From the IMG/VR virus record IMGVR_UViG_3300037193_001286, positions 9,859-73,858 of that record: DNA of 64,000 nucleotides; one strand, 5' to 3'. Each line of letters starts with the position of its first letter. The first letter of the stretch is position 1. The stretch comes from a virus. This document shows positions 851-54,718 of this stretch, in pieces. The notes below the pieces were generated by a model. The model did no database searches. It was not told the DNA's origin and saw only the letters and a program-made list of their open reading frames with translations. A program made the position numbers and the translations under genes.

Positions 851-869
851 GACGTTACCTCATAGTAGG

Positions 870-1199: not shown

Positions 1200-1213
1200 C
1201 GGTCGGTATCTCC

Positions 1214-2787: not shown

Positions 2788-2799
2788 GGCGCGTCCTCC

Positions 2800-5959: not shown

Positions 5960-5960
5960 A

Positions 5961-6365
5961 TTAGGCATTCTCCGGAATCCAACGCCGCTTGGACCGACCA
6001 GGCGGATAGTAGGTTTCAGGATCGGGTAACGGCGGCGGCGGCTCCTGCCGCAGCGCCTGGATGCTTTGAGTGATCTCATCCGACGTCGTCTGCTCCGATG
6101 CGGTCTGATCGGATGTGCCGATCTCGCTTGGCTCCGCTGCGGGGGTTGGCGTTGGAGTCGGTGCTGCCGGTTCCGGCGCTGGTGCAGGAGTAGGCTCTGG
6201 CGTCGGCGCTGGTTGCGACGGCTCCGGGGTTGGAGTCGGAGTAGGCGTCGGCGCTGGAGTCGGCGTCGGAGTGCCGGGAGTGGCCGGGGTGGCAGGCGTA
6301 GCCGGAGTGGCTGGTACAGCCGGATCGGTAGCCTGTGATTTTGCTTTACGCGTAGCCATGCTCAT
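5961..6365 (-). CDS. Small Pro/Thr/Ala-rich low-complexity protein
   Basis: GGAGG RBS before ATG 6365; (PAT)n and (PT)n repeats; lies between the I-like and J-like genes. Confidence 0.6.
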   Translation of the reverse strand: MSMATRKAKSQATDPAVPATPATPATPATPGTPTPTPAPTPTPTPTPEPSQPAPTPEPTPAPAPEPAAPTPTPTPAAEPSEIGTSDQTASEQTTSDEITQSIQALRQEPPPPLPDPETYYPPGRSKRRWIPENA

Positions 6366-20631: not shown

Positions 20632-22599
20632 TCACCAGTTGACGCCCTGTACGGCTGCGATCATCCCGGCGCGACGCATTGCCCACTCGACATAGAGGGT
20701 CATGCGAACGCCGACAGTGTCAGTCTGCCAGAGCGAGCGGATCGGGCTTGCCGTTGCTGGCGTAGCACCGCCAGTGACGAGCGGCGCGGGCGTCGTGTCT
20801 TCCTCGTGGATCGTTGCCTGATCGGAGATCGAGAACCGGGGCGTATCGCCGTTCGCCGAGGCGAAGTCGGCAGCATCGACCGCGATGACGGTATCCGCAG
20901 GCACCGTGTTGGAGACGAGGAAGGTGACGTTCAGCCGCTGGGCAGCTTCCGCCTGGTTGAAGATGAACTCGCCCGTCGAGGACTGCGCCCAGTTGACGCC
21001 CATGCTCTGGACCGGGTTCATGATGATGGCGATGTTGCGGCCACCGCCATTCGCGGTGATCGCTCCCACGAGCGCCTTGAAGTCGGCGATCATGGCCAGC
21101 GGACCGCTGGGGTTCGCGTCGGGCGTTAGCGGGGTGACACCGTTCAGGAGACCTGCCGGGCGCACCACCGATCCAGCGACATCGTCGAGCAGGTAGGAGT
21201 CGATGGACTCCATCGTGTCGTCGGCCATCGCCTGACGAATGACCGCCTCGATCGCCGGGACCGAATGCATGGCCAGTTCTTCAGTGAAGGTCGAGATCAC
21301 TGCCAGCTTCTTGGGCGTCAGCGTGATAGTGGTGAGACCGATGCGGCGAACCGGCTTCGGTGCACCCTCACCTACCCAAGAACCTGCGAGCTTCGGCGTA
21401 TTGGCGCGGGCCGGAATCTTGAGCGACGCGTTCGCGCCGAACGAGAACCGGACGCCAAGGTTGGACAGCCTCGTATAGATCGACTCCGGCATCAACCGGT
21501 CGATAAAGTCGAGGTTGGCCTGCTGCACCAATTCGGCAGCCCAGCCCGGCGTGGTCGTGTTTGCCGGGTTGGTCACGGCCCTGAGAACGACTTCCGTCAT
21601 TTCGTCGTTGCCATAGACCGCCTGCATGGCTTCAAGCGGGTTCTGCTGGCGCATGCGCGCGAGGAAGTGCACGACGCCCGCACGGACGAGGAAGTCGCCC
21701 GGCTCGACCTTCTTCTTCGCCATGGCGAATGGTCGCTTCTGATCAGCCGGTGCCTGACGCTGCGGCTGCTGAAGCTGCGGCTGCGGTTCTTCCGAGTCCC
21801 TGGAATTGGCCGTCGTAAGCGCGAGGGCGCGTTCGGCCGACTGAAGGGTGACGAGCTGCTTCTGAGCGACGGCGATACGGCCGTCCTCGCCGCGAGCCAG
21901 TTCTTCCAGCTCAATCTGTTCGGCTTCGTCGAGTTCTTCCATGCCGGTAAGCACGGTGAGGCGGTCGCGCAGGTCATTCAGAGTCGTCTGCGCCGCCTTG
22001 ATGCGATCAGCGAGTTTCATTGATTTTCTCCCGGATGCAGGGAGTTGCGGCTTGGCGATCTTGCCTGGGGAACCGCCTTCTCCATCCAGCTCCGGTGCGG
22101 CGATCTTGCCATAGAGCTGGCGGCTAACGTCGGCGGGAAGAGCCAACGAGCGGCCGATTTGCAGCGCGTTGGGATTGGCGGGAACGGCGACAAGCGAGCA
22201 TTCGACAAGCTCGCTCTTGAGGTAACGGTATGGCCCCCAGCTGCCAGCGTCCTTGTCTATCGGCTCCTTGTCGATGGGGCGGAAACCGACCGACACGGCC
22301 TTGAGGATGCCTTGCTTCCAGAGGCGACGAATATTGTCGACGAGTTGACTGGTGCCTTCCTCAGCCAGCTTGAGGCGGCCGATCAGACGGCGACCCTCGA
22401 CGCGCACATTCTCCCAAGTTCCGACGATGGCGTCGGAATGGTGATTGAACAGCGCGATGGGGTTCTTCTTGAAGGACGATAAATCCCAACCGGCAGCGAG
22501 AATGATCTCGCCGTAACGGTCTACAGTTTCGTCGGAAAGGACATATTCGGAAGGATCGCGTTCGGACTGCCTGGCGGTGCGATAGACGATCTCTTTCAT
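20632..22599 (-). CDS. Prohead protease-major capsid protein fusion (HK97 fold)
   Basis: N-terminal S78 protease motifs (DRYGEII, LFNH, AVSVGF, ECSLVAVPANPNA), coiled-coil scaffold and HK97 capsid motifs (WVGEG..KP, SLWQ). Confidence 0.92.
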   Translation of the reverse strand: MKEIVYRTARQSERDPSEYVLSDETVDRYGEIILAAGWDLSSFKKNPIALFNHHSDAIVGTWENVRVEGRRLIGRLKLAEEGTSQLVDNIRRLWKQGILKAVSVGFRPIDKEPIDKDAGSWGPYRYLKSELVECSLVAVPANPNALQIGRSLALPADVSRQLYGKIAAPELDGEGGSPGKIAKPQLPASGRKSMKLADRIKAAQTTLNDLRDRLTVLTGMEELDEAEQIELEELARGEDGRIAVAQKQLVTLQSAERALALTTANSRDSEEPQPQLQQPQRQAPADQKRPFAMAKKKVEPGDFLVRAGVVHFLARMRQQNPLEAMQAVYGNDEMTEVVLRAVTNPANTTTPGWAAELVQQANLDFIDRLMPESIYTRLSNLGVRFSFGANASLKIPARANTPKLAGSWVGEGAPKPVRRIGLTTITLTPKKLAVISTFTEELAMHSVPAIEAVIRQAMADDTMESIDSYLLDDVAGSVVRPAGLLNGVTPLTPDANPSGPLAMIADFKALVGAITANGGGRNIAIIMNPVQSMGVNWAQSSTGEFIFNQAEAAQRLNVTFLVSNTVPADTVIAVDAADFASANGDTPRFSISDQATIHEEDTTPAPLVTGGATPATASPIRSLWQTDTVGVRMTLYVEWAMRRAGMIAAVQGVNW

Positions 22600-30665: not shown

Positions 30666-31997
30666 CTACTCGTCAGTAGCTTCCTGTAGCACCGGCTGGC
30701 CGATGCCTTCGGCAGCTGCGATGTATCGCAGGATGCCTTCAGAGAAGCCGTCGATGTGCGTCCAGCCATTGCCGTAACCGACGCCGTTCCGGTAGGAAGC
30801 GACGTTGATCATGTAGGCACGATCCGCACGCGGCGGCGGCACAACGTCTGCCGTCTGCTCATCGGAGATGACGATCAGGCGGTCATGCCACTCACGGTTC
30901 GCACGCTCGATGGCCCTACCAAGATAGGTGCCCATGTGCATCTGCGAGCTGATCACCGCATCGACGCCAGCCATGCCGCGACGCGCCGGGACTTCCTTGA
31001 TGTCATTCGAGAACGAAAACACCCGCAAGTCGCCGTTGATCACCGACGCCAGAGCGGCGGCGGCATCCATCCGCATCATGTCCGAACGCTGCGATAGCCG
31101 CGTGTTCATCGAGCCGGAGACATCGACGAGGACAATCGTCTTGCCCGGCAGCTCGACGCCTTCAGACACCGCCTCGACCAGCGCCTGATCGATCACCCCT
31201 TCCAGCTGCGGCGCGGCGCGAGCGGCAGCAACGTAGCGGAACGGGAAGACCATCTTGGCACCACGGCGAGCAAGGATCGCCTCCTTGACCAGATCGAGGT
31301 CGGCACCTGCCTCGACCATGTTGCGCAGGTTGCGCAACAGAGCGAGGTAGCCGATCTTCCCCTCCCGGATCAGGCGTTCGAACGTCTCCTTCTTGTCGGC
31401 ACCCCCGGACAGCGCGACTTCCCACGTATCCGGCGTCACCAGCTCACGGTTGGCGAGCCGCTTGTAGAGCGATTCACGCTCCGGCGTCTTGCCCTTGGCG
31501 TGCGACAGGAACAGCACGTCGCGAAGGCGGACCATGCCGTCACGGTCATACTTCGCCAGCGAATACTCGTTGAACTTGTCGAAGGCAGCAGCCAGCCCGC
31601 GCTTCATCTGGGCGGACAGCGGACGCTTGCCGCCACGCCAGTAGAGCGCAACCAGTTCTGCCAGCTCATCCGGGCGCGTGATCGTCGCGGTGATCGCCTC
31701 GGCAACGCCGGGACCGCCTCGACGGACCAGATCGAGAAGCAGCATCAGTGGTGCATGGCGAAGGCCGTGGACGGTACGCGCCTCGACAGCGAGCGCCGCA
31801 ACGTCGTCCTTCTTCACCTTCTCTGCGGTCACCATGATGCGGTCGGCGATGGTCTCCCCGTCCTCGTAGAACTGGTTTTCCCATAGGAGACATGCGAGCA
31901 CGGACCGGCGCAGCTGCAAGATCGGCGAAAGTCCGCCGACAGCGCGAGCGCCCTCGTGGGTGAACTCAGTCTTCCGGATTGGCTTGTTGGTGCGCAT
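30666..31997 (-). CDS. rsr: Ro60-related TROVE/vWA RNA-binding protein
   Basis: LRR.V..CLLWE..FYE, RPDEL, F.EY.LAKY, TWE, ALLRNLRN, PFRY and vWA DVSGSM motifs; start re-assigned to ATG 31997 with an AAGGA RBS. Confidence 0.93.
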   Translation of the reverse strand: MRTNKPIRKTEFTHEGARAVGGLSPILQLRRSVLACLLWENQFYEDGETIADRIMVTAEKVKKDDVAALAVEARTVHGLRHAPLMLLLDLVRRGGPGVAEAITATITRPDELAELVALYWRGGKRPLSAQMKRGLAAAFDKFNEYSLAKYDRDGMVRLRDVLFLSHAKGKTPERESLYKRLANRELVTPDTWEVALSGGADKKETFERLIREGKIGYLALLRNLRNMVEAGADLDLVKEAILARRGAKMVFPFRYVAAARAAPQLEGVIDQALVEAVSEGVELPGKTIVLVDVSGSMNTRLSQRSDMMRMDAAAALASVINGDLRVFSFSNDIKEVPARRGMAGVDAVISSQMHMGTYLGRAIERANREWHDRLIVISDEQTADVVPPPRADRAYMINVASYRNGVGYGNGWTHIDGFSEGILRYIAAAEGIGQPVLQEATDE

Positions 31998-32061
31998 GAT
32001 CGAAATTCCTTTGGTTGGCCTACGCCACCGTGGGTTTTCCATCAGCGCCCAGGAGGAAGGT

Positions 32062-32130
32062 GGGCGGGAATAATCGCCAGACGGTCTGGACATCATTTCA
32101 AGTGAAGTAACCGTCAGCTTCGCCACGCCC
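32062..32130 (-). ncRNA. Y-RNA-like element D (short, about 69 nt)
   Basis: GGGCG/CGCCC terminal stem, UGGCGAAG...AUUCC motif, GACGG/CCGUC helix, UACUUC. Confidence 0.75.
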
Positions 32131-34570: not shown

Positions 34571-34593
34571 AACCGCCTTCGGGCGGTTTTTTT
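34571..34593. terminator. Rho-independent terminator
   Basis: AACCGCC-TTCG-GGCGGTTTTTTT. Confidence 0.85.
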
Positions 34594-36199
34594 ACGCGAT
34601 CAGCGCGTCGATATCGACCGAGTTTTCCGTCTCAAGCTTCAGTGCCGCAATCGCCATGATCGCCGCCACGGCAGGGTCTATGCGCCCGGTGGACTTCGAT
34701 TTTTCCGGCTTGCGGTTGTTCGCGGCGTCGAAAGCGACCACGACGTTGGACATCGCCCAGCGCAGCACCGGATGCCCGCCATGGCGGATGCGCCCCTGTA
34801 GCGCCAGCTCCTCGACCAGATCGAGCGACGGCCCCATATCCTTGAAGCCTTGGCCGTGGCTCATCAGCGGTATGATAAGCCCCTGCCGCGCCAAGGATTG
34901 CCGGAAAACGTCGATCCGCCAGCGGTCGTAAGCGATCTTGTGGAACGGGATCGTCTTCGACAGCTCGCCGATGTCACGCGCAAGGAAGTCGTAATCAAGC
35001 GCCTCGCCCGGAACCGGGATCATCAGATCGCGATCCGCCCATGCCCGGTATGGCGCACGGTCGCGGATGGCGCGCGCGTCGAGCGTATCATTCGGCGTCC
35101 AGATGCGCGGCATCAGATGGATGATGCCCTCGTCATCCTCGACCGCCATCACCAGCGCCGAAAGGTCCACCCTCGCCGACAGGTCGAGGCCCGCGCCGAC
35201 TTTGCGATCCGAATAGAACAATGCCTCATTGATTGCCTCATCCCCCCTCGCCCAGACCGCCTGAGTGAGGAATGGAGCTTTAGCCTGGACGCGCTGGTTC
35301 AGGTACAGATTGCGCACCGACGCTTCCAGCGCGGGCAGCTTCACGGCGCGGCCCATCATCGTGCGGAACTCGTCGATGTCGCGATAATCGCCCAGTGTCG
35401 GATTGGCCTTCAGCCACTGCTTTTCGTCGAGCAGCTTGCACTCTGGATCGGCGGCATAGAGGTGAACCGTGAAGGTCTCGTCCTCGATCACGCCCGCCTT
35501 CACTTTGAGGCCATAGTCGATCAGTTCGGAAAGAAGGTGCTCATCGCTCGCCGCTTGCGTCGAAATAACCATCATCAGCGGCTCGACCTGCGATCCAAGC
35601 GACGTCATCAGCGCGTCATAGAGCGCCGAATTCTTCGACTGGGCCAGCTCGTCATAGATCACGAAATCCAGACCCTCGCCGAATGCGCCACCGGCATCCG
35701 CTGAGATCGCCGTGTAGGTCGAGCCGTCCTCCTTGTGGACGATCACCTTCGACGAGTTGATCACCTTCAGCTTCTTCATCAAGGCGCGATTGCGGAAGAC
35801 GATGGTCGCGACCAGGCGGTGGATGATGCCAGCTTGCTTGCGGGTCGTCGCGGCGCTGACGATCGTCGAGTTCGGCTTCTTGAATGGACCGACCAGGTGC
35901 AGCAGCAAGATCACCGCCGCAAGCAGCGATTTCCCAGCGCGCCGGCCGACTGAAAGTATCCCTTGCCGCCTTTTGCGCCGCCCATCCTCTGTTCTGGGGT
36001 TATAGACGTCCCGGATGAAGTCGATCTGGAACTGTCGAAGGCGAAGCGGCTGGTTGACATATTTACCGGCCGGGACGACCAGCGAATGAGCGAACGCGAT
36101 GGCCAAGCCCGATGGCAGATCCCAGTCCTCTTTGGGAACGTCCAGCGCCTTCATGCGTCGATGCCGGAGTTGCCGTTTGTCCTTCACGATCTGGTCCAT
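34592..36199 (-). CDS. terL: Terminase large subunit
   Basis: Walker A GRRAGKS, Walker B IYDE, ISTQ, GLDLS..DL.A, YDRW and RIDP.VA motifs. Confidence 0.95.
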   Translation of the reverse strand: MDQIVKDKRQLRHRRMKALDVPKEDWDLPSGLAIAFAHSLVVPAGKYVNQPLRLRQFQIDFIRDVYNPRTEDGRRKRRQGILSVGRRAGKSLLAAVILLLHLVGPFKKPNSTIVSAATTRKQAGIIHRLVATIVFRNRALMKKLKVINSSKVIVHKEDGSTYTAISADAGGAFGEGLDFVIYDELAQSKNSALYDALMTSLGSQVEPLMMVISTQAASDEHLLSELIDYGLKVKAGVIEDETFTVHLYAADPECKLLDEKQWLKANPTLGDYRDIDEFRTMMGRAVKLPALEASVRNLYLNQRVQAKAPFLTQAVWARGDEAINEALFYSDRKVGAGLDLSARVDLSALVMAVEDDEGIIHLMPRIWTPNDTLDARAIRDRAPYRAWADRDLMIPVPGEALDYDFLARDIGELSKTIPFHKIAYDRWRIDVFRQSLARQGLIIPLMSHGQGFKDMGPSLDLVEELALQGRIRHGGHPVLRWAMSNVVVAFDAANNRKPEKSKSTGRIDPAVAAIMAIAALKLETENSVDIDALIA

Positions 36200-36209: not shown

Positions 36210-36674
36210 TCAATCCCCGGCACCATCCATCAGCCAACCCATCTCGTCATCGGGATCGACTTTCGTCGCCATGATCCGCTGGCGAGCGACCGGCGACAGC
36301 CCCAGCTCCGCGCCGCAGGCATGCATCTCCCGCTGTAACCCGTTCATGGCCGAAAGCAGCGGATGTTTGATCACCCCTTGAGGCGTCTTCACCAGCATCC
36401 CATCCGCCTTGACCGCCTCGTCAGCCTCCCGCCACCTCGCCCAAGCGACCACGTACCTCTCCATGATCGACGTGTCGGCCCTGGCGAGCACTCCGGCCGG
36501 TAAAGAGGCGACAACGAAGCGCCAAAGTGCCTTTTCGGTCGGCGTGAGATGATCTGGTGGTTCCAACGTGCCAACGCCCTCGATGCGTGGTCCCTGGCCC
36601 TTTTTCCCTACATGGGAGCGGTCGCCCTCGCTTTCCTTGACGATTGCGAGCTTTGGTTTGCGTCCTTGCATCAC
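36210..36674 (-). CDS. terS: Terminase small subunit (P27 family)
   Basis: GRKPK, PP.HL, KHP and ELGLSP.AR.R motifs. Confidence 0.92.
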   Translation of the reverse strand: MMQGRKPKLAIVKESEGDRSHVGKKGQGPRIEGVGTLEPPDHLTPTEKALWRFVVASLPAGVLARADTSIMERYVVAWARWREADEAVKADGMLVKTPQGVIKHPLLSAMNGLQREMHACGAELGLSPVARQRIMATKVDPDDEMGWLMDGAGD

Positions 36675-36769
36675 TGATACCCGTCAAAATGCGTTTTTCC
36701 TCATATAGGGCTACAGGTTACCGGAAAGGCAACCATTTCGCCAAATAGGGCCAAAAAGATTTTCCCGAA

Positions 36770-36870
36770 AGTGGTAGTTGTTGGGGGCCGCCGGTCCCGG
36801 CCGGGGTATATGACGTTTTGCTAATACCCCCCCCCTCCTCCGCCCTGGTTGGCGGCCGTCCCGCCTGCCG
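36770..36870. other. Probable cos (genome end) region
   Basis: GC-rich non-coding gap between HNH and terS with a C9 tract and short palindromes; the usual cos position in HK97-like HNH-terS-terL phages (inference). Confidence 0.6.
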
Positions 36871-36919
36871 TTCGACGATCGTCGAGAGGCCGGAGCACTT
36901 CGAGCCTTTCGGCCTAGGC

Positions 36920-37297
36920 CTATCGGCCGCTATGCCGCCTCTTTAGCCGGGCTTGCGTTGTCGGATCGATTGGAGCGGGACGGTTGACCGTGTCGATTGC
37001 GGCCGTGTTGTCGGATTGGTTCCATGGGTGATTAGGATCGATAGGCATGCCGGACTCGTCGCATGCTCCGGCTAACGTGCCACGGTCATAAGCGGCCGTA
37101 AGGACTCCATGGTGAAACTTGCATAACGATTGCAGATTGGACGGATCGAGTCGGCGATTAGGCGCATTCTTGACCGTGACAATATGGTCCACAAAAACCG
37201 CACGCTTTCCGCATCCTTTAACGACGCATGCAGGATTGTGCTTTAGATGCTTTGCCCGGAGTCGGTTCCATTCTTTGCTCTGGTAAAATCCCGGCAT
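36920..37297 (-). CDS. HNH endonuclease (terminase-associated, HK97 gp74-like)
   Basis: FY.S.EW..LR, P.C, VDHI and NLQSLC..HH motifs. Confidence 0.92.
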   Translation of the reverse strand: MPGFYQSKEWNRLRAKHLKHNPACVVKGCGKRAVFVDHIVTVKNAPNRRLDPSNLQSLCKFHHGVLTAAYDRGTLAGACDESGMPIDPNHPWNQSDNTAAIDTVNRPAPIDPTTQARLKRRHSGR

Positions 37298-37321
37298 TTC
37301 ATCAAACCTGCAAAATAGGCC

Positions 37322-37350
37322 TTGCTATTCGTCAAACTTGCCTTTATGTA
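37322..37350 (+). promoter_or_regulatory. Island promoter P1
   Basis: TTGCTA-ttcgtCAAACTTGcctt-TATGTA; repeated at 38168, 39215 and 40587. Confidence 0.75.
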
Positions 37351-37388
37351 CATGGTCAACAACAACCACACACATAAGAGGCAAGGCA

Positions 37389-37871
37389 ATGATAACCGCT
37401 CAAGAGCTAGTTAACCGTGAAGTGCACTATTGCGTTTCCAGTCTCGTTTCCACGCTTGCCGGTGGCTATTCGGTAGTTGACCATAAAGCCCGCGACCTAA
37501 GCGAGCTTACCGAGCAAGCGGCCGAATTGTGCTACCCCATAGACGATTACGAGGAAGCCGCTATTCAAGCCGGTTGGACTCGCAATGCGCATAACGGCAT
37601 GTTCGTTGCGCCTACCGGGCATGAGCCACGCATGGCCGATTATGACGATTGGCGCGAGCTTTGCGAAGATAACGACATTGAACCGTATCAGCGCGAAGTG
37701 TTCGAACACTGGATTGTGTCAGATTGGTTTGCGGACAAGCTCGCCGAAAAAGGCGAAAAGGTCGACAAGGACTTTGCCGGTTTGACCGTTTGGGCACGTA
37801 CCACGACGGGACAAGCAATCTACATGGATAGCGTCATTGAAACCATTCACGCGGAATTGGTTGCGCGCTAA
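37389..37871 (+). CDS. Island hypothetical protein
   Basis: GGCAAGGCAATG leader; E.FEHWIVS.W.A.KL...GE and VW.R.TTGQAI.MD.VI phage motif. Confidence 0.75.
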   Translation: MITAQELVNREVHYCVSSLVSTLAGGYSVVDHKARDLSELTEQAAELCYPIDDYEEAAIQAGWTRNAHNGMFVAPTGHEPRMADYDDWRELCEDNDIEPYQREVFEHWIVSDWFADKLAEKGEKVDKDFAGLTVWARTTTGQAIYMDSVIETIHAELVAR

Positions 37872-37907
37872 CGCGCGCGACTCTCTCTTATTAGGGAAGG
37901 CAAGGCA

Positions 37908-38153
37908 ATGAAGCGCTGGAATAACACAAACAAAGTTATCGTTTCGCGGGACGAAGTCGCACGGTTCAACAGTCAATGGCCGTGCAGCGAATTGCGCGAC
38001 TCGCGTTCCTATTGGTTTGAGTTTGACGACAATGGCGACTTAGTCGACCACGATGTCCCGCAACAGGATGACGGGACGGCGGCGCGCGCGATGGCGGACG
38101 ATTGCCGCGCATGGCTCTTCGATGACGACACTCCGGAATGGTCCGACAAATAA
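37908..38153 (+). CDS. Island hypothetical protein
   Basis: GGCAAGGCAATG leader; acidic, 81 aa. Confidence 0.7.
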   Translation: MKRWNNTNKVIVSRDEVARFNSQWPCSELRDSRSYWFEFDDNGDLVDHDVPQQDDGTAARAMADDCRAWLFDDDTPEWSDK

Positions 38154-38167
38154 TCACATTTGCCCTA

Positions 38168-38195
38168 TTGCTATTAGTCAAACTTGCCATATGGA
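38168..38195 (+). promoter_or_regulatory. Island promoter P2
   Basis: TTGCTA-ttagtCAAACTTGcca-TATGGA; second box TCACATTTGC just upstream. Confidence 0.7.
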
Positions 38196-38232
38196 TATGT
38201 GCATAGACAACGCGTCACGAAAGGCAAGGCAA

Positions 38233-38481
38233 ATGAAACGCATTCTCGCAACCGCAACCGCTCTTTTCGCGCTCGCAAGCTCCGGCTTTGCGGCCGAGTC
38301 CGCACGCTATGAATTGCGCGTGGAATACAGCGGAAACGTCTATACGGCCGATTATGGCCTAACCGGAGACGATTGCTTGATTGCTCTGGATCAATTCCGG
38401 GCAAAGCGCATGCTTGAAATCAGCTCCGGAGACTTCGTTTTGATAGCGGACGACTCCGCAAGCTCTTGCGTAGGGGAGTAG
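38233..38481 (+). CDS. Island exported protein
   Basis: GGCAAGGCAAATG leader; signal peptide MKRILATATALFALASSGFA. Confidence 0.7.
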   Translation: MKRILATATALFALASSGFAAESARYELRVEYSGNVYTADYGLTGDDCLIALDQFRAKRMLEISSGDFVLIADDSASSCVGE

Positions 38482-38486
38482 CGGCA

Positions 38487-38792
38487 ATGGCAAAAGTCAC
38501 GGTTGATAATTCGGGCAATCTGTATCCGGGCACGGTCTCAATTGCGGACTTGGCCCAGTTTCTTCCAATCCTGAACAACGACTCCAATTGGCTCGACATC
38601 TATCTAGTCGAGTCCGCGATGGCGGAAGCATGGCCGCATGAAATCGAGCGGTTCGAATATGAGTTTGCAACCGGCTATTCGGCTTATTTCAAGGACGGGA
38701 CGGCAATTCATATAGGCGCGTGGATGGATAGGGACGAACACGAGTCCGCGCGTCTGTGGCGCGCTATGAAGGCAAAGGAAGCAAGGCAATGA
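38487..38792 (+). CDS. Island hypothetical protein
   Basis: GGCAATG leader. Confidence 0.65.
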   Translation: MAKVTVDNSGNLYPGTVSIADLAQFLPILNNDSNWLDIYLVESAMAEAWPHEIERFEYEFATGYSAYFKDGTAIHIGAWMDRDEHESARLWRAMKAKEARQ

Positions 38793-39019
38793 ATTTTGCA
38801 CAATCGGCAACATGCGGCTTTGTGGAGCTGCTAGACGCAAAAGGAGACGGTTCGCACTTCATTCGTGCAGCTCATATCGTCCGGATTAGTCCGGCATTTG
38901 ACGCGGATGGCGTATGGACGCATTGCGACGTTTGGACAATCGACGGCCGCACGACATGCGTTAACGCGACGTTTGAGCAAATTGCGGAAGCGATTGAAGC
39001 GGAGACGGCAAGGCAATGA
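38789..39019 (+). CDS. Island hypothetical protein
   Basis: GCAAGGCAATGA overlap with the previous stop codon. Confidence 0.65.
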   Translation: MNFAQSATCGFVELLDAKGDGSHFIRAAHIVRISPAFDADGVWTHCDVWTIDGRTTCVNATFEQIAEAIEAETARQ

Positions 39020-39192
39020 CAACGGTCAACAGCTACGAAAAAGCCGCGCGTCTAGCTGGTTGGGAGCTTCGCACTTTCGGCAATGGAGTCGCGAAATGGT
39101 GGAATCCGCAAAATGATGACGGAAGCCGCTATGTCAACAACGAACGCGCGTCTCGGTACATCTGCGAAGATTACGGCATAAAGCCGGAATAG
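39016..39192 (+). CDS. Island hypothetical protein (58 aa, not in ORF track)
   Basis: GGCAAGGCAATGA overlap; MTTVNSYEKAARLAGWEL... Confidence 0.6.
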   Translation: MTTVNSYEKAARLAGWELRTFGNGVAKWWNPQNDDGSRYVNNERASRYICEDYGIKPE

Positions 39193-39214
39193 GCACAATT
39201 AATCAAATTTGCCA

Positions 39215-39243
39215 TTGCTATTAAGCAAGTTTGCCTATATGTA
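39215..39243 (+). promoter_or_regulatory. Island promoter P3
   Basis: TTGCTA-ttaagCAAGTTTGccta-TATGTA; TCAAATTTGC just upstream. Confidence 0.75.
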
Positions 39244-39280
39244 AGAAGGCATAGGGCAAACACGCTTTGGAGCGAGGCAA

Positions 39281-39421
39281 ATGCATAACCTACCGGCTTT
39301 CATTTCTTTCAACGTCGCGGCCGTCGCGCTGATTCTCATGATTGCGATTCCCGGCAATCCGCTGAACGAACTAACGCGCGGCGCAATCCAGACTTTCGTT
39401 TGTGAAGGGGCTTGCAAATGA
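39281..39421 (+). CDS. Island small membrane peptide (46 aa)
   Basis: GAGGCAAATG leader; hydrophobic stretch; ATGA-coupled to the next ORF. Confidence 0.5.
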   Translation: MHNLPAFISFNVAAVALILMIAIPGNPLNELTRGAIQTFVCEGACK

Positions 39422-39942
39422 TCACGGCAAAACCAGAGATGACCGCTCACTATTTGGGAGTCGTTCGCGGCCGTTGCGACGGTCAACCGATTGTTGACGT
39501 CATGACGGGAAAGGTTTTGCCCGGTATCTGCCGGACATACGTTCCATGCCAACTAGACGGCAATCATGCTTATTTCGATCTGGGCGGCTATTCGTGGCGC
39601 GTTCCGCTCGATGGCACGGCTTGTGAGCGGTTGCCACGGACTCACGTTTACGTGTTGCACCTTTCCAAGTCCCGCAACGGATTCGGAAAGCCAACCGTGC
39701 CCGCTATCCGCTCCGCTCACACTGGGCACTATATCGCGGAGACAGGCACAACAGTTAAGCCGGATTCGGCCGCTATTCGCGCGGCATTGCCTCACTACTA
39801 CCGGAAAGCGTTTGACCGCGCGTGCGGCGCAATCTGGTTTGATAAACACGACGACAACAAACCGGCTTACATAACGTTACGGGACGCGCGCGGCCGTTAC
39901 CTGAACACGGTCTATTGTCTATTGAGCAAGATGGAAGGTTAA
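39418..39942 (+). CDS. Island hypothetical protein
   Basis: 174 aa ORF coupled to the previous ORF. Confidence 0.6.
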   Translation: MITAKPEMTAHYLGVVRGRCDGQPIVDVMTGKVLPGICRTYVPCQLDGNHAYFDLGGYSWRVPLDGTACERLPRTHVYVLHLSKSRNGFGKPTVPAIRSAHTGHYIAETGTTVKPDSAAIRAALPHYYRKAFDRACGAIWFDKHDDNKPAYITLRDARGRYLNTVYCLLSKMEG

Positions 39943-39946
39943 GGCA

Positions 39947-40558
39947 ATGCCGGAATTCATCCTGAACACTGACGGCGCAACGGCCGATAATTGGCACAAT
40001 CTCGACTCCTTCACGCAAGGCTTTATTGAAGCCGCGTTTTTCTCCGATTCCTCTTGCTTTGACTCGTCCGAGTTCTTCGGAGATGAGGCACAAGAGCGAG
40101 TCCGCGAAGGACAAGCGGACGGAAGCATTCCGAATGATGCGGGACCGTCCGATATAGACGCGGAGTCCCTTGCCAAGGTTAAGGCCTTTTGCGCGGCATT
40201 CCAGACGCGTGCAGCGGACGTTCTAACGGAAGCTTACGAACGCGAGTATGACGAAACGCAAGCCGGACGGGACTTGTATTTCACCTATGCCGGGCACGGA
40301 GTCGGCTATTGGGATAGGGATGCATTGAAAGCCAATGACGCGGACTTAGAAGAGTATGAGCGTTTGACGGCCGTTATGATTGCAAACCGCGACAACAATG
40401 CAAAATGGGATGAAGCGCTATCCGCACGGCATGAGGTGGAATCGCGAGGCATAGGGAAACGGCTTTCCAAGCTTTGCGGCCGTGGCGAAATCAATCTGGA
40501 TGCATACGAGTCGGAAGAGTCGGAAAGCGGTTTTTACGTGTCGTTTTATATCGGCTGA
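39947..40558 (+). CDS. Island hypothetical protein (acidic)
   Basis: AAGGCAATG leader; QAG.D..FT..GHG.GYWDR phage motif. Confidence 0.75.
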   Translation: MPEFILNTDGATADNWHNLDSFTQGFIEAAFFSDSSCFDSSEFFGDEAQERVREGQADGSIPNDAGPSDIDAESLAKVKAFCAAFQTRAADVLTEAYEREYDETQAGRDLYFTYAGHGVGYWDRDALKANDADLEEYERLTAVMIANRDNNAKWDEALSARHEVESRGIGKRLSKLCGRGEINLDAYESEESESGFYVSFYIG

Positions 40559-40586
40559 TTTATGTACATTTTTTTGATTTAGGCTC

Positions 40587-40616
40587 TTGCCTATTCGTCA
40601 AATTTGCTCTTATATA
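40587..40616 (+). promoter_or_regulatory. Island promoter P4
   Basis: TTGCCT-attcgtCAAATTTGctct-TATATA. Confidence 0.7.
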
Positions 40617-40653
40617 CCTCTCAGGCAAACACAAATGCATGAGAGGTTTTTTT

Positions 40654-40881
40654 ATGAAGAACATGACTCGCCATACCGGCAAGCTTGAAATTATCAAGCG
40701 CTTGCCTTCGTCCGCAAACGGCAATCCGCGATACCTGCTTAAGGTTGACGGTTGGACTTGCCGCACGGCCGTAGACTCTTCGCTCGGTTATTCCGTCACC
40801 AATTTTGACGGCAAAACCGTGCACGCGACAATCGGCACACATTACGGCAATGCAACACTGGACTCGGTTCAGCTCGCTTAA
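40654..40881 (+). CDS. Island hypothetical protein
   Basis: GAGG RBS; R..SS.NGNPRY motif. Confidence 0.65.
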   Translation: MKNMTRHTGKLEIIKRLPSSANGNPRYLLKVDGWTCRTAVDSSLGYSVTNFDGKTVHATIGTHYGNATLDSVQLA

Positions 40882-40898
40882 CTCCGAAAGGCAAGGCA

Positions 40899-41147
40899 AT
40901 GACAACGGTTATGCTCGACTCATACGATCCGGTAAAGAATAGCGGCGGACTCTGCCGTGACTTCACGACAGACGGTTTTCCTATTCGCCTTTATCAGCAT
41001 AGGACGCGGAAAGAACGCGGCTTTGCGGTTCAGTACGGAAAGCAATTCGACATTTACCTAACCTATTCGGAAGCGTGCAAAAAACTAGGCGAAGCGCTCA
41101 TGCATGACGCGGCTTGCCGTGGCGAACTCGACAACGAAAGGGATTAA
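40899..41147 (+). CDS. Island hypothetical protein
   Basis: GGCAAGGCAATG leader; F.V.YG.Q...LTY..A...LG..LMH...C.G.LD. Confidence 0.7.
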   Translation: MTTVMLDSYDPVKNSGGLCRDFTTDGFPIRLYQHRTRKERGFAVQYGKQFDIYLTYSEACKKLGEALMHDAACRGELDNERD

Positions 41148-41149
41148 TC

Positions 41150-41392
41150 ATGATACCGATTAACGTTCGCGTCTTTAACTTTGGCACGGTTCAATTCTGG
41201 AATAGTTACCGCAAACATACGAACGCGCGGACGTGGCGCGGAGCAATGCGCACATTTGCCGCGCAACACGGCAAAGCAATTGCAATGCGTTGCGACGGTT
41301 CAGCATTCCTCGTTTATCGCGACGAAGGCAATAAGAGCGGATTCCGGCAGGAAACGATTCCCGCGTCCAATGTTCAATGGCTCAACATTTGA
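41150..41392 (+). CDS. Island hypothetical protein
   Basis: ORF starting 2 nt after the previous stop codon. Confidence 0.55.
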   Translation: MIPINVRVFNFGTVQFWNSYRKHTNARTWRGAMRTFAAQHGKAIAMRCDGSAFLVYRDEGNKSGFRQETIPASNVQWLNI

Positions 41393-41460
41393 ACGGCTTA
41401 TAGAGCGGCCAATCTGGGCCGCTCCGGTAAACCGTTAATCAGGCAAGGAAAGACAAGGCA

Positions 41461-41859
41461 ATGACATACCATTTCAAATGGCAATCCGGATACATGGGAA
41501 CCGTCGATTATATGGTGACGGATTCAACCGGGACATTTCGCGCGGAGCTTAGAACGCAATTAGGCGATTACGAGCGCTCGATTTTGAACTATGACGCGGA
41601 CGGAATCGCAAAGCACGTCGAGTCCACAATCGGACTTCTTACACGTTGCGTTTGCGACAACCACGGCGAAATTTTACCGGAGACAATCGCCGCTTTTAAC
41701 GCATGGCGCGCGGACGAACACGCGCGGCAAATGGCGCATATGCGCGCGCATCCGGAGCGATACGGGACGGAATTTAATGAGCCATGGTTTCAACCGCCTA
41801 AACCGGTGCACGCGGGACGTTGGAGTGAACAAACCGGCTGGACTCGTGTAGGGGAATAA
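41461..41859 (+). CDS. Island hypothetical protein
   Basis: GACAAGGCAATG leader. Confidence 0.7.
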   Translation: MTYHFKWQSGYMGTVDYMVTDSTGTFRAELRTQLGDYERSILNYDADGIAKHVESTIGLLTRCVCDNHGEILPETIAAFNAWRADEHARQMAHMRAHPERYGTEFNEPWFQPPKPVHAGRWSEQTGWTRVGE

Positions 41860-41864
41860 CGGCA

Positions 41865-42188
41865 ATGGAAAAGCAAACGACGTTCCGCAAACATAGCTGG
41901 AAAGTCCCGGTGCGTGCGGGAAAGACTGTCGAGCAAAACGGCTATGCTACGGCTAATTTCGGCATACATAAACACTATGACAATTGGTGTGTAACGCATT
42001 TGCCTACCGGGCTTGCGATTGACTATTTCCGCTCCAAACGGCTTTCCATGGTCAAATCAATTGTTGCGCGTGCGGAAACGGTTTTCGATTGGTCAACCGG
42101 AGCGGACGTCTATGAAATCGCGGCACATAACCGAATTGACGCGCGCGCATTCAATGACGCGGTGCGGGACATTGGACGCGGTCAATAG
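41865..42188 (+). CDS. Island hypothetical protein
   Basis: CGGCAATG leader; W.VTH.PTG motif. Confidence 0.7.
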   Translation: MEKQTTFRKHSWKVPVRAGKTVEQNGYATANFGIHKHYDNWCVTHLPTGLAIDYFRSKRLSMVKSIVARAETVFDWSTGADVYEIAAHNRIDARAFNDAVRDIGRGQ

Positions 42189-42200
42189 AAAGGCAAGGCA

Positions 42201-42590
42201 ATGGCAAATCACGACACAAGCCGCTTTTGGGCATGGTTTGACGCCACGCGGAACGCTGCAATCCAGACGGATGACGGCCGCAAGTTTCATGCGGCTGGAT
42301 TCGACCTAACCCATACCGGAGGAGGTTGCACGGCATGGGAACGCGCCATACCGGGCACGGATTGGCTTATATGGATTGCTACCAGTGAAGCCGGGCATGA
42401 ATTGACTCCAGCGGATATTGAAGCCGGAGACGATTTTGGCGCGTGGATTGTGCACAAGGAAGAGTCGCACCATTCGCGCGCGCAAAACGCGAACACGGTT
42501 GAAGGCGTATTGAAGATAGCGGACGAAATGGCCGCGACCGTGCAGCGTGGCGAAATAGACTCGCTTCATATGGAATACGTCCACTACTGA
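42201..42590 (+). CDS. Island hypothetical protein
   Basis: GGCAAGGCAATG leader; HTGGGCTA motif. Confidence 0.7.
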   Translation: MANHDTSRFWAWFDATRNAAIQTDDGRKFHAAGFDLTHTGGGCTAWERAIPGTDWLIWIATSEAGHELTPADIEAGDDFGAWIVHKEESHHSRAQNANTVEGVLKIADEMAATVQRGEIDSLHMEYVHY

Positions 42591-42682
42591 CGGCTTATAG
42601 ACGGCCGCGCGTTGCGTTTTCGGAGCAATTCCGATTCCGCAATGCGGCCGTTCAATAAACTGTTGAGAGGAAAGGCAAGGCA

Positions 42683-42877
42683 ATGCCCGAGTTTGTTGTA
42701 ATCGCGCATAGGCGCAACGGAAGCGTTTTCGGAGCGGCAACCGCTATCTGTAAAGACGCGGACGGCAAAGAAAAGACTTATCCAACGCGCGACGCGGCCG
42801 ACTCCGCTGCAAAGCGCTATAACGACAGAACCACGTCACCAAACGTCTATTACACTGTTGAGGAAATGGCGCGATGA
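42683..42877 (+). CDS. Island hypothetical protein
   Basis: GGCAAGGCAATG leader. Confidence 0.65.
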   Translation: MPEFVVIAHRRNGSVFGAATAICKDADGKEKTYPTRDAADSAAKRYNDRTTSPNVYYTVEEMAR

Positions 42878-43101
42878 ATGACTCCATTCTAGCGGACGAT
42901 ACCCGCTATATCATGCGCCGCGACGCGGACGGCCGTTTATTGGTTCTGACGTTCAGCAATGATGAATTTGCCGACTATTGGACGGCCGCGCAAATAGAGC
43001 GTTTCGGCCGCGCGTTACCAGTGACGCGGGACGGATGCACCTTCGCGGACATGGCCGCATGTACGGCCGAAACAATGCAGCATTGGAGCGAAACGCCGTG
43101 A
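42874..43101 (+). CDS. Island hypothetical protein
   Basis: ATGA-coupled; last plus-strand ORF of the island. Confidence 0.55.
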   Translation: MNDSILADDTRYIMRRDADGRLLVLTFSNDEFADYWTAAQIERFGRALPVTRDGCTFADMAACTAETMQHWSETP

Positions 43102-43609
43102 TTGCTCCGGAGCTTGAAAATGATGGATAGACCGTTGCGCGCTGCTAGTCCGCTAGTGGCGCGTTTCCGCATGTTTCGGAGTCTTGCCGTGAACCGTCCA
43201 ACCGGTTGACGGGACGACTCCGCGTGGCTTGCGGCCGTGGCGCGGCCGTGCAGCGCGATTCCAGCTCCGGCATGGTGGTTGACCGTCCGGAGCGAAGAAA
43301 ACGCGTGTACGGCCGTTTATGGCGGTTTGCCTTGCGTGGTTTCGTTGCCGCATCCCGTTCCATGCTCCGGCATTGGCGCGGAGACGTATGGAAGCGGTTG
43401 CGACTCGTCCGGCATGCCGGGAACGGCAAGGCTTAAGACGCGTTGTGCGGCCGTCTGTGGCGGTTTGGCCGCTTGCCGCTCCGGTTCCATGCCCGGCGAT
43501 TGGCTAATGGAAGGTGGCGGAAGCGTTCTATGCGCAATGCAACCGACGCGTTGCAAAGCAGCCCCTTGAAGCCCCAGCCCATCCCCTAGATTGCGAATTT
43601 GGTAGCGAC

Positions 43610-43735
43610 CAGGGCCGGGGGGGGTATCCCGGTTGCTTTTAAAAAAAATTTTTGGGCACGCTTCCCAAGGCCGGGCGCAAAAAAAGGGCCGGTGAAAAAA
43701 ATCCGGCCCGAAAAATCTGGGAGGGAATTCCATTC
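43610..43735. other. G8-TA tract followed by repeated A/T tracts (island boundary)
   Basis: GGGGGGGGTA at 43617-43626, then TTTTA8T5, A7, A7 and A5 tracts. Confidence 0.6.
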
Positions 43736-45995
43736 TACACGACGTCGTATTTTTCATCAGGGAGTTTTTTCTCCAACCGCTTTGTCTTTTCGTTCAGCCC
43801 AGCGACGACGCATTCTAGGGCGTCATCCCTGTCCCTGTATTTGTGCAGGAACCGCTTGATCAATCTGTCCAGTTTCCTGTCGAAATCATCGTCCATCGAG
43901 GTGTCGGCAACGCGGTCCGGTTCAGGTGGACCATACAGGCGGGAATTGATCAGACATTCCAAGTCATCCACCACTAGGTCGAGCGTTGCGAGCCTCGTCG
44001 CGATCTTAGTTACGTCATCAGCATCTTCTTCTTCTCTCATAGCGACATCCTCCCATGGCGCTTAAATACCGGCTCTGATCCGGGTGATTTCAGAGCGCAT
44101 GGCTTGCACCAGTGCTTCCAGATCGCCGGATGCCTCATGCACCGCCTTGAAGATCGGGGAGGTCGGCCGTTCTGCGCGGTCGATTTCTGCCGGGGATGCC
44201 GGTCCGACGAGGCTGTCCGCCAGCTTGATCAGGTCGTGATAAACCTCATCGACGGCGCGGATCGCCAGATGCAGGTGCTCGACCGGGCCGGTGGTCACCA
44301 CCTGGCGGGGTTTGGCTTGCGGTAAAGCGCCCAGCCGCGTGGCACCTCCTGCGCTGGGAGCGAACTTGCGTGCAATCGACACGTCGTCGGCGGCAATAGC
44401 CTCGGCAAGGCCAGCTTCAAGTGTCTTGTCATTCATTTGGGTTTCTCCTCTGGTGATAACGTTCACGAAGTTTGTCCATCAATAGGTCGATTGCAGTCGT
44501 GTCGTCCAACGGCCCTTCCCGCTCCTGATCGAACAACTCGACGATCATGCGCATGTAGGCCATGTATTCGGTATTCTTCGCGTGCTTGCAGATAGTGCCC
44601 GCCATTATTCCGGTGACATAGACCGCCAACTGGACTGGCATGTCGCTGGTCTCGATCTCTTTGATCAGCGCGTCGATATTTGTCATCATCGCTCCTCCGC
44701 TCTCCTACCTGAGCGTGATTTCGATGTGCAGTTGACCGCCTTCATCTTCCCAAAAGGTTGTTCCGCCAGCTTTGACATAGCCGTTCAGCCCTTCTTGCCT
44801 GTCAGACGAGACGTAATCACCGCTCTGCGGGACCACCGGCAAATCCAATTCGAACATCTGATATTCAGGACCATCGGTGTATTTCTTGATGGCGATCTTC
44901 ATTGCACCCTCCTATATCGCCGTCCACGCCCAGAGGCTGAGCGCGAGGATCGAGAACAGCACGAGGGCAAGCGCGGAATTGATTAGCGCGTCGTAGCTCA
45001 TGACACCGCCTTTAGAACGCGGACATACCAGACGTTCTCGATGTCCTGATTGGTGATCTGCTTCAGATCGTCGGGGGTCTCGATGGTCGACCACCAGCTT
45101 TCGAAGCCATAGACCAGCTCGCCGGTTTCGAAGACGAACATGCAGGGATTGGAGTAGGTGCGCTGAAGCGTCAACAGCTCGCCGTTCTTGACGACGGGGG
45201 CGACGCCGATGGGCATGTCGCCCAGATAGAGGCCAAGCCGGGTGATGTCTTCGCTCGCCTTGCGGACGGCGACATAGGAACCCTGCGCGGATTGCTTGAA
45301 CAGCGGCTGCTTGACGCGCGGCACCATGACTTCATCGACGTCGATCTGAACGACGCCTTGCGGGATGTTGACGACGCTCATTCCGTCTCCCTCCCCTTTA
45401 TGGCGTGCAGCACTGCAAGGCAGATCGCCAGCGGTTCGGTGCTTCCCCTTACATCAAACGGGTGATTGAGCGAGCCGATGCCCCAGCCGCCTTCCGCATC
45501 CGCATCGCGCTGCTCATAGGTGATGCGCGCTGCCGGATTCAGGCCGGTCCAGATGGTCATTGAGTATCGGCGATCCGGTGTATCCGGGAAAACCGTCTTA
45601 AACAGGATGAGCGCCGCGTCGATGGAGGCGGTGGGATACCCCTCGATCATCTCGAAATATTCGTTCAGCATCTCGTCGAGGTTGGCGTCTGGGCCGGTCG
45701 CGGCCCGCAGTTTTTCGATCAGTTCTTCGATCATCATGACCCTTCTCCTCGTTGGTCACTGGCGTCCGTCGAATTGCTCCACTTCCTCGCGGCCGTGCAG
45801 CCTGACGAGGCGGATAAGCATCTGCCTTTCGGTCGCCAGCTGCCGGGCCATGTCGGTCACCCAAGGCAGTCTCTCTTCATCCGCCGCCATCAACGGCATC
45901 CATTGCCCGTTTATCGAGACTGCGCATAGGCCTTCGATCCCGTCTGTGTCGACAGAAACCGCTACCCACACCTGGTCGATCCTGGTAATGTTCAC
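43735..45995 (-). CDS. Run of about 8 small hypothetical ORFs (43735-44040, 44062-44434, 44429-44689, 44705-44902, 44998-45381, 45378-45737, 45756-45995)
   Basis: Tightly packed, co-oriented ORFs with GGAG RBSs; no family recognised. Confidence 0.55.
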
Positions 45996-54229: not shown

Positions 54230-54394
54230 GACGGGGAGGATACCCGAAAGGTAACCCCCTTGGAAGGTTAAAAAATCATGTACGGGATTAACCCTAACCT
54301 AGAATACCTCGAAAGTGTCATGTACACGTCACTTGCCTTTTGGGTAAATAACGTACATAAATATAAAACAGTGTTCAGTATCAGGATTCGCGGC

Positions 54395-54718
54395 TTGACA
54401 CAGATAATTTTCTTTTTCCGGGAATGGCGCTTACACGCCCACCTCTCTCAGAAGCAGCTCGCCAAACGCGTGGGGAGGACTGCTGCGACCGTCTCTCGCA
54501 TCGAGAATGGCATGCGTGAAATTACGAGAGACTATTTGGTGAAATTCGCTGAAGCAGTGGGTTGCCGCCCCGGAGACCCCATAAATCGCCCTCCGGAAAA
54601 GATTTCAATCGACGAAATAATTGAGACGAGCGACGCGCACGACGAGGAAACTGAGCGGATCATCAAGCAGAAGGTGATCGAGTTTTTGAAACTCATCGAC
54701 CAGTCAAAAAAAGAATAG
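54395..54718 (+). CDS. CI-like XRE repressor (no peptidase domain)
   Basis: REWR....LSQ.QLA.RVG...TVSRIENG; divergent from the Cro-like gene; TTG start assumed. Confidence 0.75.
   Translation: MTQIIFFFREWRLHAHLSQKQLAKRVGRTAATVSRIENGMREITRDYLVKFAEAVGCRPGDPINRPPEKISIDEIIETSDAHDEETERIIKQKVIEFLKLIDQSKKE

Follow-up and report, generated by a model that had tools for sequence, protein, structure and literature searches.

In phages T5 and BF23, restriction sites matter only inside the first-step-transfer region, and this region is depleted of words that are kept elsewhere. In the Autographiviridae, the leading region is highly variable, and the location of restriction-modification motifs there decides the sensitivity. 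This leading-region rule, by which the outcome of defence depends on which sites lie in the first-exposed DNA, is already known for T5-like and T7-like phages, and in the literature we found no paper describing the pattern reported here for cos siphophages. The present analysis concerns an island at positions 36825–43626 of a stretch of 64,000 nucleotides (the window), which corresponds to bases 9859–73858 of the 73,858-bp virus record IMGVR_UViG_3300037193_001286. The phage is a temperate HK97-type siphophage with a genome of 73.9 kb, and the island is located in the slot between its HNH/cos/terminase block and a converging replication operon. The word skew of the island is real and robust. 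It is maintained by selection acting on the DNA of this compartment, and neither origin nor codon usage accounts for it. We see roughly even chances that the island is an exchangeable cassette of early or accessory genes, located next to cos at the end of the genome that is packaged last, with its words kept by selection.

The zone of deviant word usage is as follows.

37145–43857, no strand: zone poor in GATC, rich in GANTC (in particular GASTC, that is, GAGTC or GACTC) and CGGCCG, and poor in ACCC/GGGT, with a GC content of 0.51–0.55

An earlier note on this DNA, made from the letters alone, had given approximate counts of GANTC, CGGCCG and GATC, and all of them were reproduced. The recount gave 51 GANTC, 28 CGGCCG and 8 GATC sites in 36825–43626, with only 4 GATC in 37300–43600; the corresponding numbers in bases 1–6000 are 12, 8 and 43. 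The abrupt stop of the bias at both ends was also found, as the last GATC of the flank is at 37144 and GATC is dense again from 43858. The GANTC sites of the island span 37053 to 43402. The description of the island as terminal does not hold in the sense of the end of the deposited record, since the island is located at 46.7–53.5 kb of the 73,858-bp genome.

Dinucleotide-preserving simulations were used as the null for the island, taken as 37.15–43.86 kb. GATC is found 4 times against 25 expected (z −4.3), GANTC 47 times against 22 (z +5.4) and CGGCCG 24 times against 4 (z +9.7). GAGTC/GACTC, with 33 sites against 7 expected (z +10.9), accounts for nearly the whole GANTC excess. The bases flanking GANTC in the island favour S-GASTC-S, and no longer motif is present. 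The bulk of the genome is skewed in the opposite way, with 613 GATC against 487 expected and 112 GANTC against 384. Thus the proposal that the island has its own word composition is confirmed, but not its limitation to three words, since the whole tetranucleotide spectrum is shifted. ACCC/GGGT, CTGC and CGCC are depleted, and CpG and GpC are raised. The dinucleotide-signature distance between the island and the bulk is 143–144, compared with 17–79 for other 5-kb windows.

A skew of this kind could be a by-product of codon usage or expression, in which weakly expressed small genes lose the codon-driven GATC excess of the bulk and no selection acts at the DNA level. Some observations fit this explanation. 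The GATC excess of the bulk is partly codon-driven (613 against 244 expected from base composition), the GC content at third codon positions (GC3) is 0.55–0.62 in the island and 0.7–0.8 in the bulk, and two comparable regions described below (the island of the relative G001 and the terminal repeat of phage Ccr10) are merely neutral. However, when synonymous codons were shuffled among 16 island genes, with the proteins and the island's own codon usage kept, the observed counts were rejected: GATC 4 against 14.3 (z −3.4), GANTC 39 against 26.6 (z +3.9), CGGCCG 18 against 3.4 (z +8.9) and ACCC/GGGT 3 against 18.8 (z −4.7). The non-coding stretch 43102–43626 carries the same skew as the island genes. 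As an internal control, the other low-GC small-gene region of the genome (22600–30600, GC 0.555) is bulk-like, with observed/expected values of 56/52 for GATC, 14/43 for GANTC and 41/41 for ACCC/GGGT and a signature distance of 39. Because of the shuffle, the non-coding tail and the control region, the skew is not mere codon usage or the property of a generic accessory region, as the earlier note had argued. The codon explanation is largely refuted, and we regard it as very unlikely. The same note had placed the bias on coding DNA of both strands and on non-coding DNA; the non-coding part is skewed, but the HNH gene is only transitional (3 GATC, 4 GANTC).

Four uncultured metagenomic phages share the architecture of the locus, and their cassettes mostly carry different genes. 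The values are observed/expected.

L148: about 80% nucleotide identity, island largely homologous; island GATC 17/36 and GASTC 40/8; flank or bulk GATC 63/44 and GASTC 0/12
L170: island mostly unrelated; island GATC 6/25 and GASTC 33/6; flank or bulk GATC 13/14 and GASTC 2/4
L224: island shorter and unrelated; island GATC 6/18 and GASTC 7/3; flank or bulk GATC 139/129 and GASTC 4/44
G001: island unrelated; island GATC 22/31 and GASTC 11/6; flank or bulk GATC 221/176 and GASTC 11/57

G001 is a 66-kb, 90%-complete IMG/VR relative, the TerL of which is 86% identical. L148 was located by a scan of IMG/VR with the 16-mer translation leader described below, which otherwise gave mostly chance matches. 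The GATC-poor, GANTC-rich skew is clear in three of the four relatives. The k-mer bias is therefore found again in the same slot of relatives whose island genes differ. The flanks of all four relatives follow the pattern of the bulk. The signature distance is 74 between islands, 124–155 between an island and its own genome, and 27 between bulks. The CGGCCG enrichment is confined to the lineage of the window and L148. Between these two islands, which are 83% identical, 14 of 18 CGGCCG and 22 of 30 GANTC sites are conserved. These fractions are above the all-word averages of 40% and 53%, and are comparable to that of the leader motif. Among prophages in GTDB, the TerL identity is at most 44%.

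Runs of three or more G or C were considered separately. They are about half as frequent as in the flanks in the islands of the window (37300–43600), L148 and L170 (observed/expected 0.23–0.36 against 0.41–0.53), and the depletion is not seen in L224 or G001. Avoidance of such runs as a general island feature was rejected, being present in only three of the five islands.

The bulk avoids 6-bp palindromes overall (observed/expected 0.62), whereas the ratio in the island is 1.0. However, 14 of these palindromes are purged from both, with 23 sites against 434 expected in the bulk and none against 30 in the island, and the avoidance of the same 14 holds in the islands of all relatives. The absence of palindromes from the bulk is strong restriction-site avoidance. 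In 66.7 kb of bulk DNA, 15 of the 6-bp palindromes expected at least twice do not occur at all, among them CCGCGG (0/57), GGCGCC (0/50), CCCGGG (0/27), GAGCTC (0/26) and GGGCCC (0/24). Since the island also lacks the 14 palindromes, it has been under the same restriction regime as the bulk, and a recent foreign import is unlikely. The idea that the island avoids restriction words stands for GATC (4 sites, against 613 in the bulk) but not for the 14 palindromes, which are purged equally from the bulk. It fails as an explanation of GANTC, which is enriched in the island although lytic rhizobiophages have purged it. GATC is thus the only word that follows the T5/T7 leading-region rule, being purged in the leading DNA and tolerated elsewhere.

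In the lytic rhizobiophages themselves, GANTC is nearly missing. The T7-like Rhizobium phage RHph_X3_9 has none in its whole genome of 44.9 kb, where about 110 are expected, and RHph_N65 has two in 24 kb, with no GANTC in the region homologous to the island. This implies very strong selection against GANTC in these phages.

These data bear on the possibility that the island consists of recently acquired accessory genes of the moron type, with the composition of a foreign donor and a position beside cos that is irrelevant. Like the cos-adjacent morons of lambdoid phages (HK97/HK022 type), the island has its own predicted promoters and terminators and a deviant composition, and its content is variable among close relatives in a fixed slot with conserved borders. 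The lower GC and GC3, the distinct genome signature, the temperate lifestyle and the conserved junctions, which could mediate cassette swapping, agree with such an import. Unlike that of morons, however, the composition is not donor-like. It shows the site avoidance of the resident phage, and unrelated cassettes converge on the same selected words. Word usage adapts fast to the resident phage: the G001 island has no CGGCCG, like its bulk, and the homologous region of RHph_N65 has no GANTC. GATC is far below and GASTC far above the neutral expectation, with conserved sites, and the other low-GC accessory region of the genome is bulk-like. The island also has four copies of one promoter–operator design and a shared translation leader, unlike morons. 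We therefore consider import of the moron type unlikely.

The packaging module next to the island is as follows.

34592–36199, minus strand: large terminase subunit (TerL), HK97 type (Pfam TerL_nuclease, 4.6e-40; TerL_ATPase, 1.8e-18)
36210–36674, minus strand: small terminase subunit (TerS), Terminase_4/P27 family (Pfam PF05119, 3.5e-21)
36781–36800, no strand: predicted cos core TTGGGGGCCGCCGGTCCCGG, 20 nt, GC-rich
36920–37297, minus strand: HNH endonuclease (weak Pfam HNH match, 0.001)

TerL is 42.6% identical to the TerL of HK97/HK022 over 89% of its length. The HNH gene is directly upstream of cos and TerS, the same position as in HK97, and its protein is 81% identical to the L148 equivalent and 65% identical to that of L170. 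By this position, the HNH endonuclease would be the cos-cleavage helper of HK97-type systems. The cos core TTGGGGGCCGCCGGTCCCGG is identical in L148 inside otherwise diverged non-coding DNA, it is 85% identical in L170, and L224 has its part GGGGCCGCCGG. In window positions, the contig of G001 begins at 36784 and stops inside HNH, and that of L148 stops at 36773. In an independent soil run (X2), two successive unitigs are interrupted here, one reaching to 36783 and the other beginning at 36805. Because of these contig and unitig ends, the conserved core and the HK97 gene order HNH–cos–TerS–TerL, the physical ends are predicted at about 36.78–36.80 kb, and this prediction is well supported. The proposed adjacency of the island to a predicted cos site is thus supported.

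As is established for lambda and HK97, packaging starts at the terminase side, which makes the HNH/island end the last to be packaged. That the last-packaged end enters the cell first is an assumption.

Long direct terminal repeats are another way in which a block of early genes can be placed at a genome end. In the style of T5, SPO1 or phiCbK, the island would be a collapsed terminal repeat, and the border sites would be the boundaries of the repeat. Direct repeats of CGAAnnTGGTAG and a GC run flank the island, and homologues of island genes are present in terminal repeats of the phiCbK type. However, the unitig depth in run X2 is 5.7–9.0 in the island and 5.7–9.5 in the flanks, and runs X4 and X15 agree. 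These runs are low-depth Logan contigs, in which uncovered parts and absent joints were not counted as evidence. According to the equal depth, the island is single-copy and no terminal repeat is collapsed in it. The terminase is of the HK97 cos type with an HNH partner, and the distal site has no conserved cos core. We consider a collapsed repeat extremely improbable.

All island genes are on the plus strand, between minus-strand flanks.

37389–43101, plus strand: 16–17 small genes of 46–203 amino acids, many of them acidic, with frames supported by comparison with L148
37389–37871, 37908–38153, 38233–38481 (signal peptide), 38487–38792, 38789–39019 and 39016–39192, plus strand: island genes
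39281–39421 (tiny membrane protein), 39418–39942, 39947–40558, 40654–40881 and 40899–41147, plus strand: island genes
41181–41438 (doubtful), 41461–41859, 41865–42188, 42201–42590, 42683–42877 and 42874–43101, plus strand: island genes
37322–37350, plus strand: putative promoter P1, TTGCTA-17 nt-TATGTA, with the conserved spacer/operator TCAAACTTGCC
38168–38196 (approximate), plus strand: putative promoter P2, with a second operator copy at 38149–38163
39215–39243 (approximate), plus strand: putative promoter P3, with a second operator copy at 39198–39212
40587–40617 (approximate), plus strand: putative promoter P4

Compared with L148 (about 83% identical), the window has its substitutions preferentially at the third codon positions of the predicted frames, and therefore the island genes are real. 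P1 reads inward about 520 bp from the predicted DNA end. P1–P4 are near-identical (TTGCTA-N16–18-TATGTA with the spacer TCAAAYTTGCC); they form a four-copy repeat family (D3/D4) and were also seen in an alignment of the upstream regions. The promoter pattern is found 7 times against 2.2 expected. By their sequence, P1–P4 are probably host-type promoters. A scan with the Escherichia coli consensus did not pick up these four conserved sites. With 16–17 small genes and four conserved, probable promoters reading inward, the claim of about 17 tiny open reading frames reading inward from the cos end is sustained.

Nine island start codons are preceded by the leader AAGGCAAGGCAATG. Copies of the leader (AA)GGCAAGGCAATG are found within 37380–42685, and two more are located outside the island at 55031 and 55472, near an AAA-ATPase gene. 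The L148 island has ten copies of GGCAAGGCAA, and the leader is absent from the G001 island. One extra exact copy of the operator word TCAAATTTGCC is found at window position 22930, upstream of the small-gene region and far from the island.

In searches of Pfam, NCBIfam and PHROGs, the island proteins matched only PHROGs of unknown function, and no Pfam match was significant. A match of an island protein to TreK at E = 0.015 was rejected as non-significant. In the ESM Atlas, genes 9 and 13 gave only viral hypothetical clusters or nothing, and a single-sequence AlphaFold model of gene 9 had a predicted local distance difference test score (pLDDT) of 41, with no usable fold.

Two island genes point to a gene pool of early or terminal regions. 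Adjacent homologues of genes 8 and 9, in the same order and reading inward, are present in the 10.6-kb terminal repeat of the Caulobacter phage Ccr10 and its relatives. Gene 8 has a further homologue in the Autographiviridae phage RHph_X3_9, in the early genes at its left end, and the unrelated island of L170 carries a member of the gene-9 family (phrog_1915).

The island resembles the pre-early region of T5/BF23 in several respects. Both are end blocks of several kilobases with small genes of unknown function and host-type promoters (predicted ones in the island), and both have a long repeat-rich non-coding stretch at the inner border. Words are depleted in the leading DNA, which in the island holds for GATC. 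Unlike the T5 region, the island is single-copy and not inside a terminal repeat of about 10 kb, homologues of A1/A2 were not found in it, and it belongs to a temperate HK97-type cos phage whose bulk itself avoids 14 palindromes. In the case of the T7-like early region, the island would have in common inward host promoters within a few hundred base pairs of the entering end and terminators at the close of a block of about 7 kb, both predicted here from the sequence; the gene 8 homologue in RHph_X3_9 is a further link. The phage studied here is, however, a siphophage with another lifestyle, and transcription-driven entry is not known for such phages. RHph_X3_9 has no word skew in its early region and no GANTC.

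The terminal repeats of phiCbK-like phages also carry about 21 small inward genes, located at experimentally mapped termini beside a terminase gene, and in them GATC enrichment and GANTC avoidance are relaxed. Unlike the island, they are true 10-kb direct repeats of a 220-kb virulent phage, and their skew reaches neutrality only, with no GATC purge or GASTC excess. Within positions 1–30000 of Ccr10, the 10.65-kb terminal repeat has GATC 45/39 and GANTC 23/37, and the next 19 kb have GATC 191/126 and GANTC 22/101. The density of CGCG in the repeat is about twice that in this neighbouring DNA. The Ccr10 terminal repeat is a weaker version of the word trend of the island.

The geometry, the gene pool and the GATC purge agree with the T5/T7-like leading-region view, which leaves the excess of GASTC and CGGCCG unexplained. 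According to this view, the cassette would be the first DNA expressed and, if ejection is last-in-first-out, also the first DNA entering the cell. Like the T5 pre-early region or the T7 class I region, the cassette may serve in host takeover or anti-defence. The GATC purge would follow the leading-region rule, by which sites matter only where DNA is exposed before phage countermeasures work. The GASTC excess would most likely be a dense adenine-methylation mark, or otherwise a protein-binding word, marking the early compartment. Of the first-ejected interpretation proposed in the earlier note, the end position at cos, the inward genes and the GATC purge stand, and the gene pool agrees with it; general restriction avoidance does not stand, and the island is no T5-like terminal repeat.

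Several observations weigh against the island being leading DNA under such selection. In the case of lambda DNA in vitro, either end can leave first, which questions last-in-first-out ejection. The bulk still avoids the 14 palindromes, and therefore the island gives no general protection. The enrichment of GANTC in supposedly leading DNA is the reverse of what restriction avoidance predicts, and 4 to 17 GATC sites persist in the islands. The G001 island is neutral, merely lacking the bias of its bulk and showing no active skew. Among about 53 more distant HK97-type phages and prophages, none has the skew, and thus it is a feature of the clade. The phage is temperate, with an integrase and a CI-like repressor, and therefore the cassette could be expressed from the prophage instead. 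No island protein matches a family of known function in the three databases searched. GANTC does not occur in any of the four putative promoters, from which the closest sites are at least 60 bp away, and the YGAKTCK context is found at 6 of the 47 island GANTC sites, where about 12 are expected. Since this context is the one preferred by GcrA, simple recruitment of GcrA is not supported, and an enrichment of the GcrA motif in the island was rejected.

The word skew may instead be explained by an epigenetic compartment independent of the order of entry. Adenine methylation by the host CcrM or by a phage N6-methyltransferase would regulate or mark the cassette, and the densities of GATC and GASTC would be adjusted to this end. 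In lysogens, expression of the cassette could thereby follow the host cell cycle; alternatively, a nuclease or silencer could distinguish the cassette from the rest of the prophage. GATC depletion and GASTC enrichment covary over the five phages. The Cro-side operon of the phage encodes a C5-cytosine methyltransferase and a beta-class N6-methyltransferase. The latter is present in the window phage and the phage of L148, both strongly skewed, and is absent from the unskewed, 90%-complete G001. By this distribution, its presence would fit the strength of the skew, as judged from three genomes only. In addition, GANTC is under-represented in Ensifer coding DNA, and it is a word read by GcrA. As under CcrM/GcrA control, the enriched GASTC is one form of the CcrM site GANTC, which is avoided by host coding DNA and by the phage bulk.

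Other results do not fit this explanation. Unlike sites under CcrM/GcrA control, those of the island are spread through coding DNA and are not located in promoters, and YGAKTCK is not favoured. The N6-methyltransferase scores 67 bits against the CcrM equivalog, for which the cut-off is 830, and is thus not a CcrM equivalog. The matches to PDB and NCBIfam cover the catalytic cores only and gave no specificity. The absence of the enzyme in G001 equally matches the avoidance of GAATTC, GTCGAC and TCCGGA, which G001 alone avoids, and its target may be one of these words instead. In about 29 kb, G001 has no CGGCCG against about 22 expected, and is also without GAATTC, GTCGAC, TCCGGA and TGGCCA. The C5-methyltransferase of G001 diverges from that of the window in the presumed target-recognition stretch, and this difference could explain the total avoidance of CGGCCG in G001. 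These features suggest that the methyltransferases of the window phage protect some of the words avoided by G001. An epigenetic compartment without regard to entry is possible, though doubtful. The homologue of the N6-methyltransferase in the phage of L148 (G002, 4769–6277, 79% identical) holds one in-frame TGA.

A bolder proposal, which we put forward only tentatively and do not think likely, combines early expression with methylation. Alphaproteobacterial phages would write an epigenetic address into the first-expressed compartment, which is stripped of GATC and packed with GAGTC/GACTC as adenine-methylation (m6A) sites, whatever genes it carries. A host or phage reader, such as a nuclease or an RNA polymerase cofactor, would treat the cassette differently in the first minutes of infection. 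That GATC is purged and GASTC packed, both being adenine-methylation palindromes, points to a DNA-level reader. If true, such an address would amount to a compartment code at the DNA level, for which there is no published description.

Should the island indeed be a selected early cassette at the last-packaged end, temperate cos siphophages of soil Alphaproteobacteria would come under the leading-region rule, in addition to the virulent T5- and T7-like phages. In that case, cassettes with early or anti-defence functions, and the polarity of the genome, could be recognized in uncultured phages from their sequence alone. The approximately 17 small island proteins are candidates for host-takeover and anti-defence screens.

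The borders of the island and the distal spacer have the following features.

36766–36777, no strand: proximal border motif CGAAAGTGGTAG, between the cos core and TerS
36827–36835, no strand: C9 run, about 25–45 nt inside the HNH-side end
43102–43593, no strand: non-coding repeat-rich spacer, with two repeat units about 138 bp apart (repeats D7)
43594–43626, no strand: distal border CGAATTTGGTAG, followed by a G8 run (43617–43624) and then TA
43640–43720, no strand: A/T tracts and GC hairpins read from the sequence, with one minus-strand terminator-like match at 43668–43652

The proximal border motif is possibly a terminase-binding site. In the window phage and in G001, CTACCAnnTTCG occurs without change at each of the two island borders, and L170 and L148 have it too. 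At both borders, the direct repeat CGAAnnTGGTAG is followed by a GC-rich stretch and then by a homopolymer run, and the C9 near cos and the G8 at the far border are the only two runs of seven or more G or C in the genome. A C7–C9 run is found at the same place in L148, L170 and L224. This layout is kept in all four relatives, with that of the distal border noted in L148, L224 and G001 and the run being C7 in G001, and the block GCTTTTAAAAAAAATTT beyond the far border is conserved in all of them. Conserved junctions of this kind can explain cassette swapping by recombination.

Compared with L148, 43102–43475 shows no codon periodicity and many indels (35 gap columns), and is therefore non-coding. 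The distal spacer is about 79% conserved in L148 and matches no Rfam family. The A/T tracts and hairpins beyond it look like terminators closing the island operons and the converging minus-strand replication operon.

The phage is from soil, and its host is probably a member of the Rhizobiales; several studies of soil and rhizosphere metagenomes contain the window sequence, and no RNA run was found to contain it. In the INPHARED phage collection, the search for close relatives gave only a 300-bp match, to RHph_N65. No circular wrap or duplication of the window was found. The tyrosine integrase gene is located at genome positions 4032–5537, just outside the window, and the CI-like repressor gene at 54278–54718. 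Portal, protease–capsid fusion, tape-measure and J-like tail-tip proteins are encoded. In a search of 22–46 kb against Rfam, all families stayed below the gathering score. Positions 30666–32126 encode a TROVE/Ro-like protein, and Rfam gives no Y RNA in window positions 22000–46000. Two collagen-repeat proteins, one of them with a fibritin-like C-terminus, are encoded at window positions 15734–18744 and 20632–22599, in addition to the fused gene for the prohead protease and the major capsid protein.

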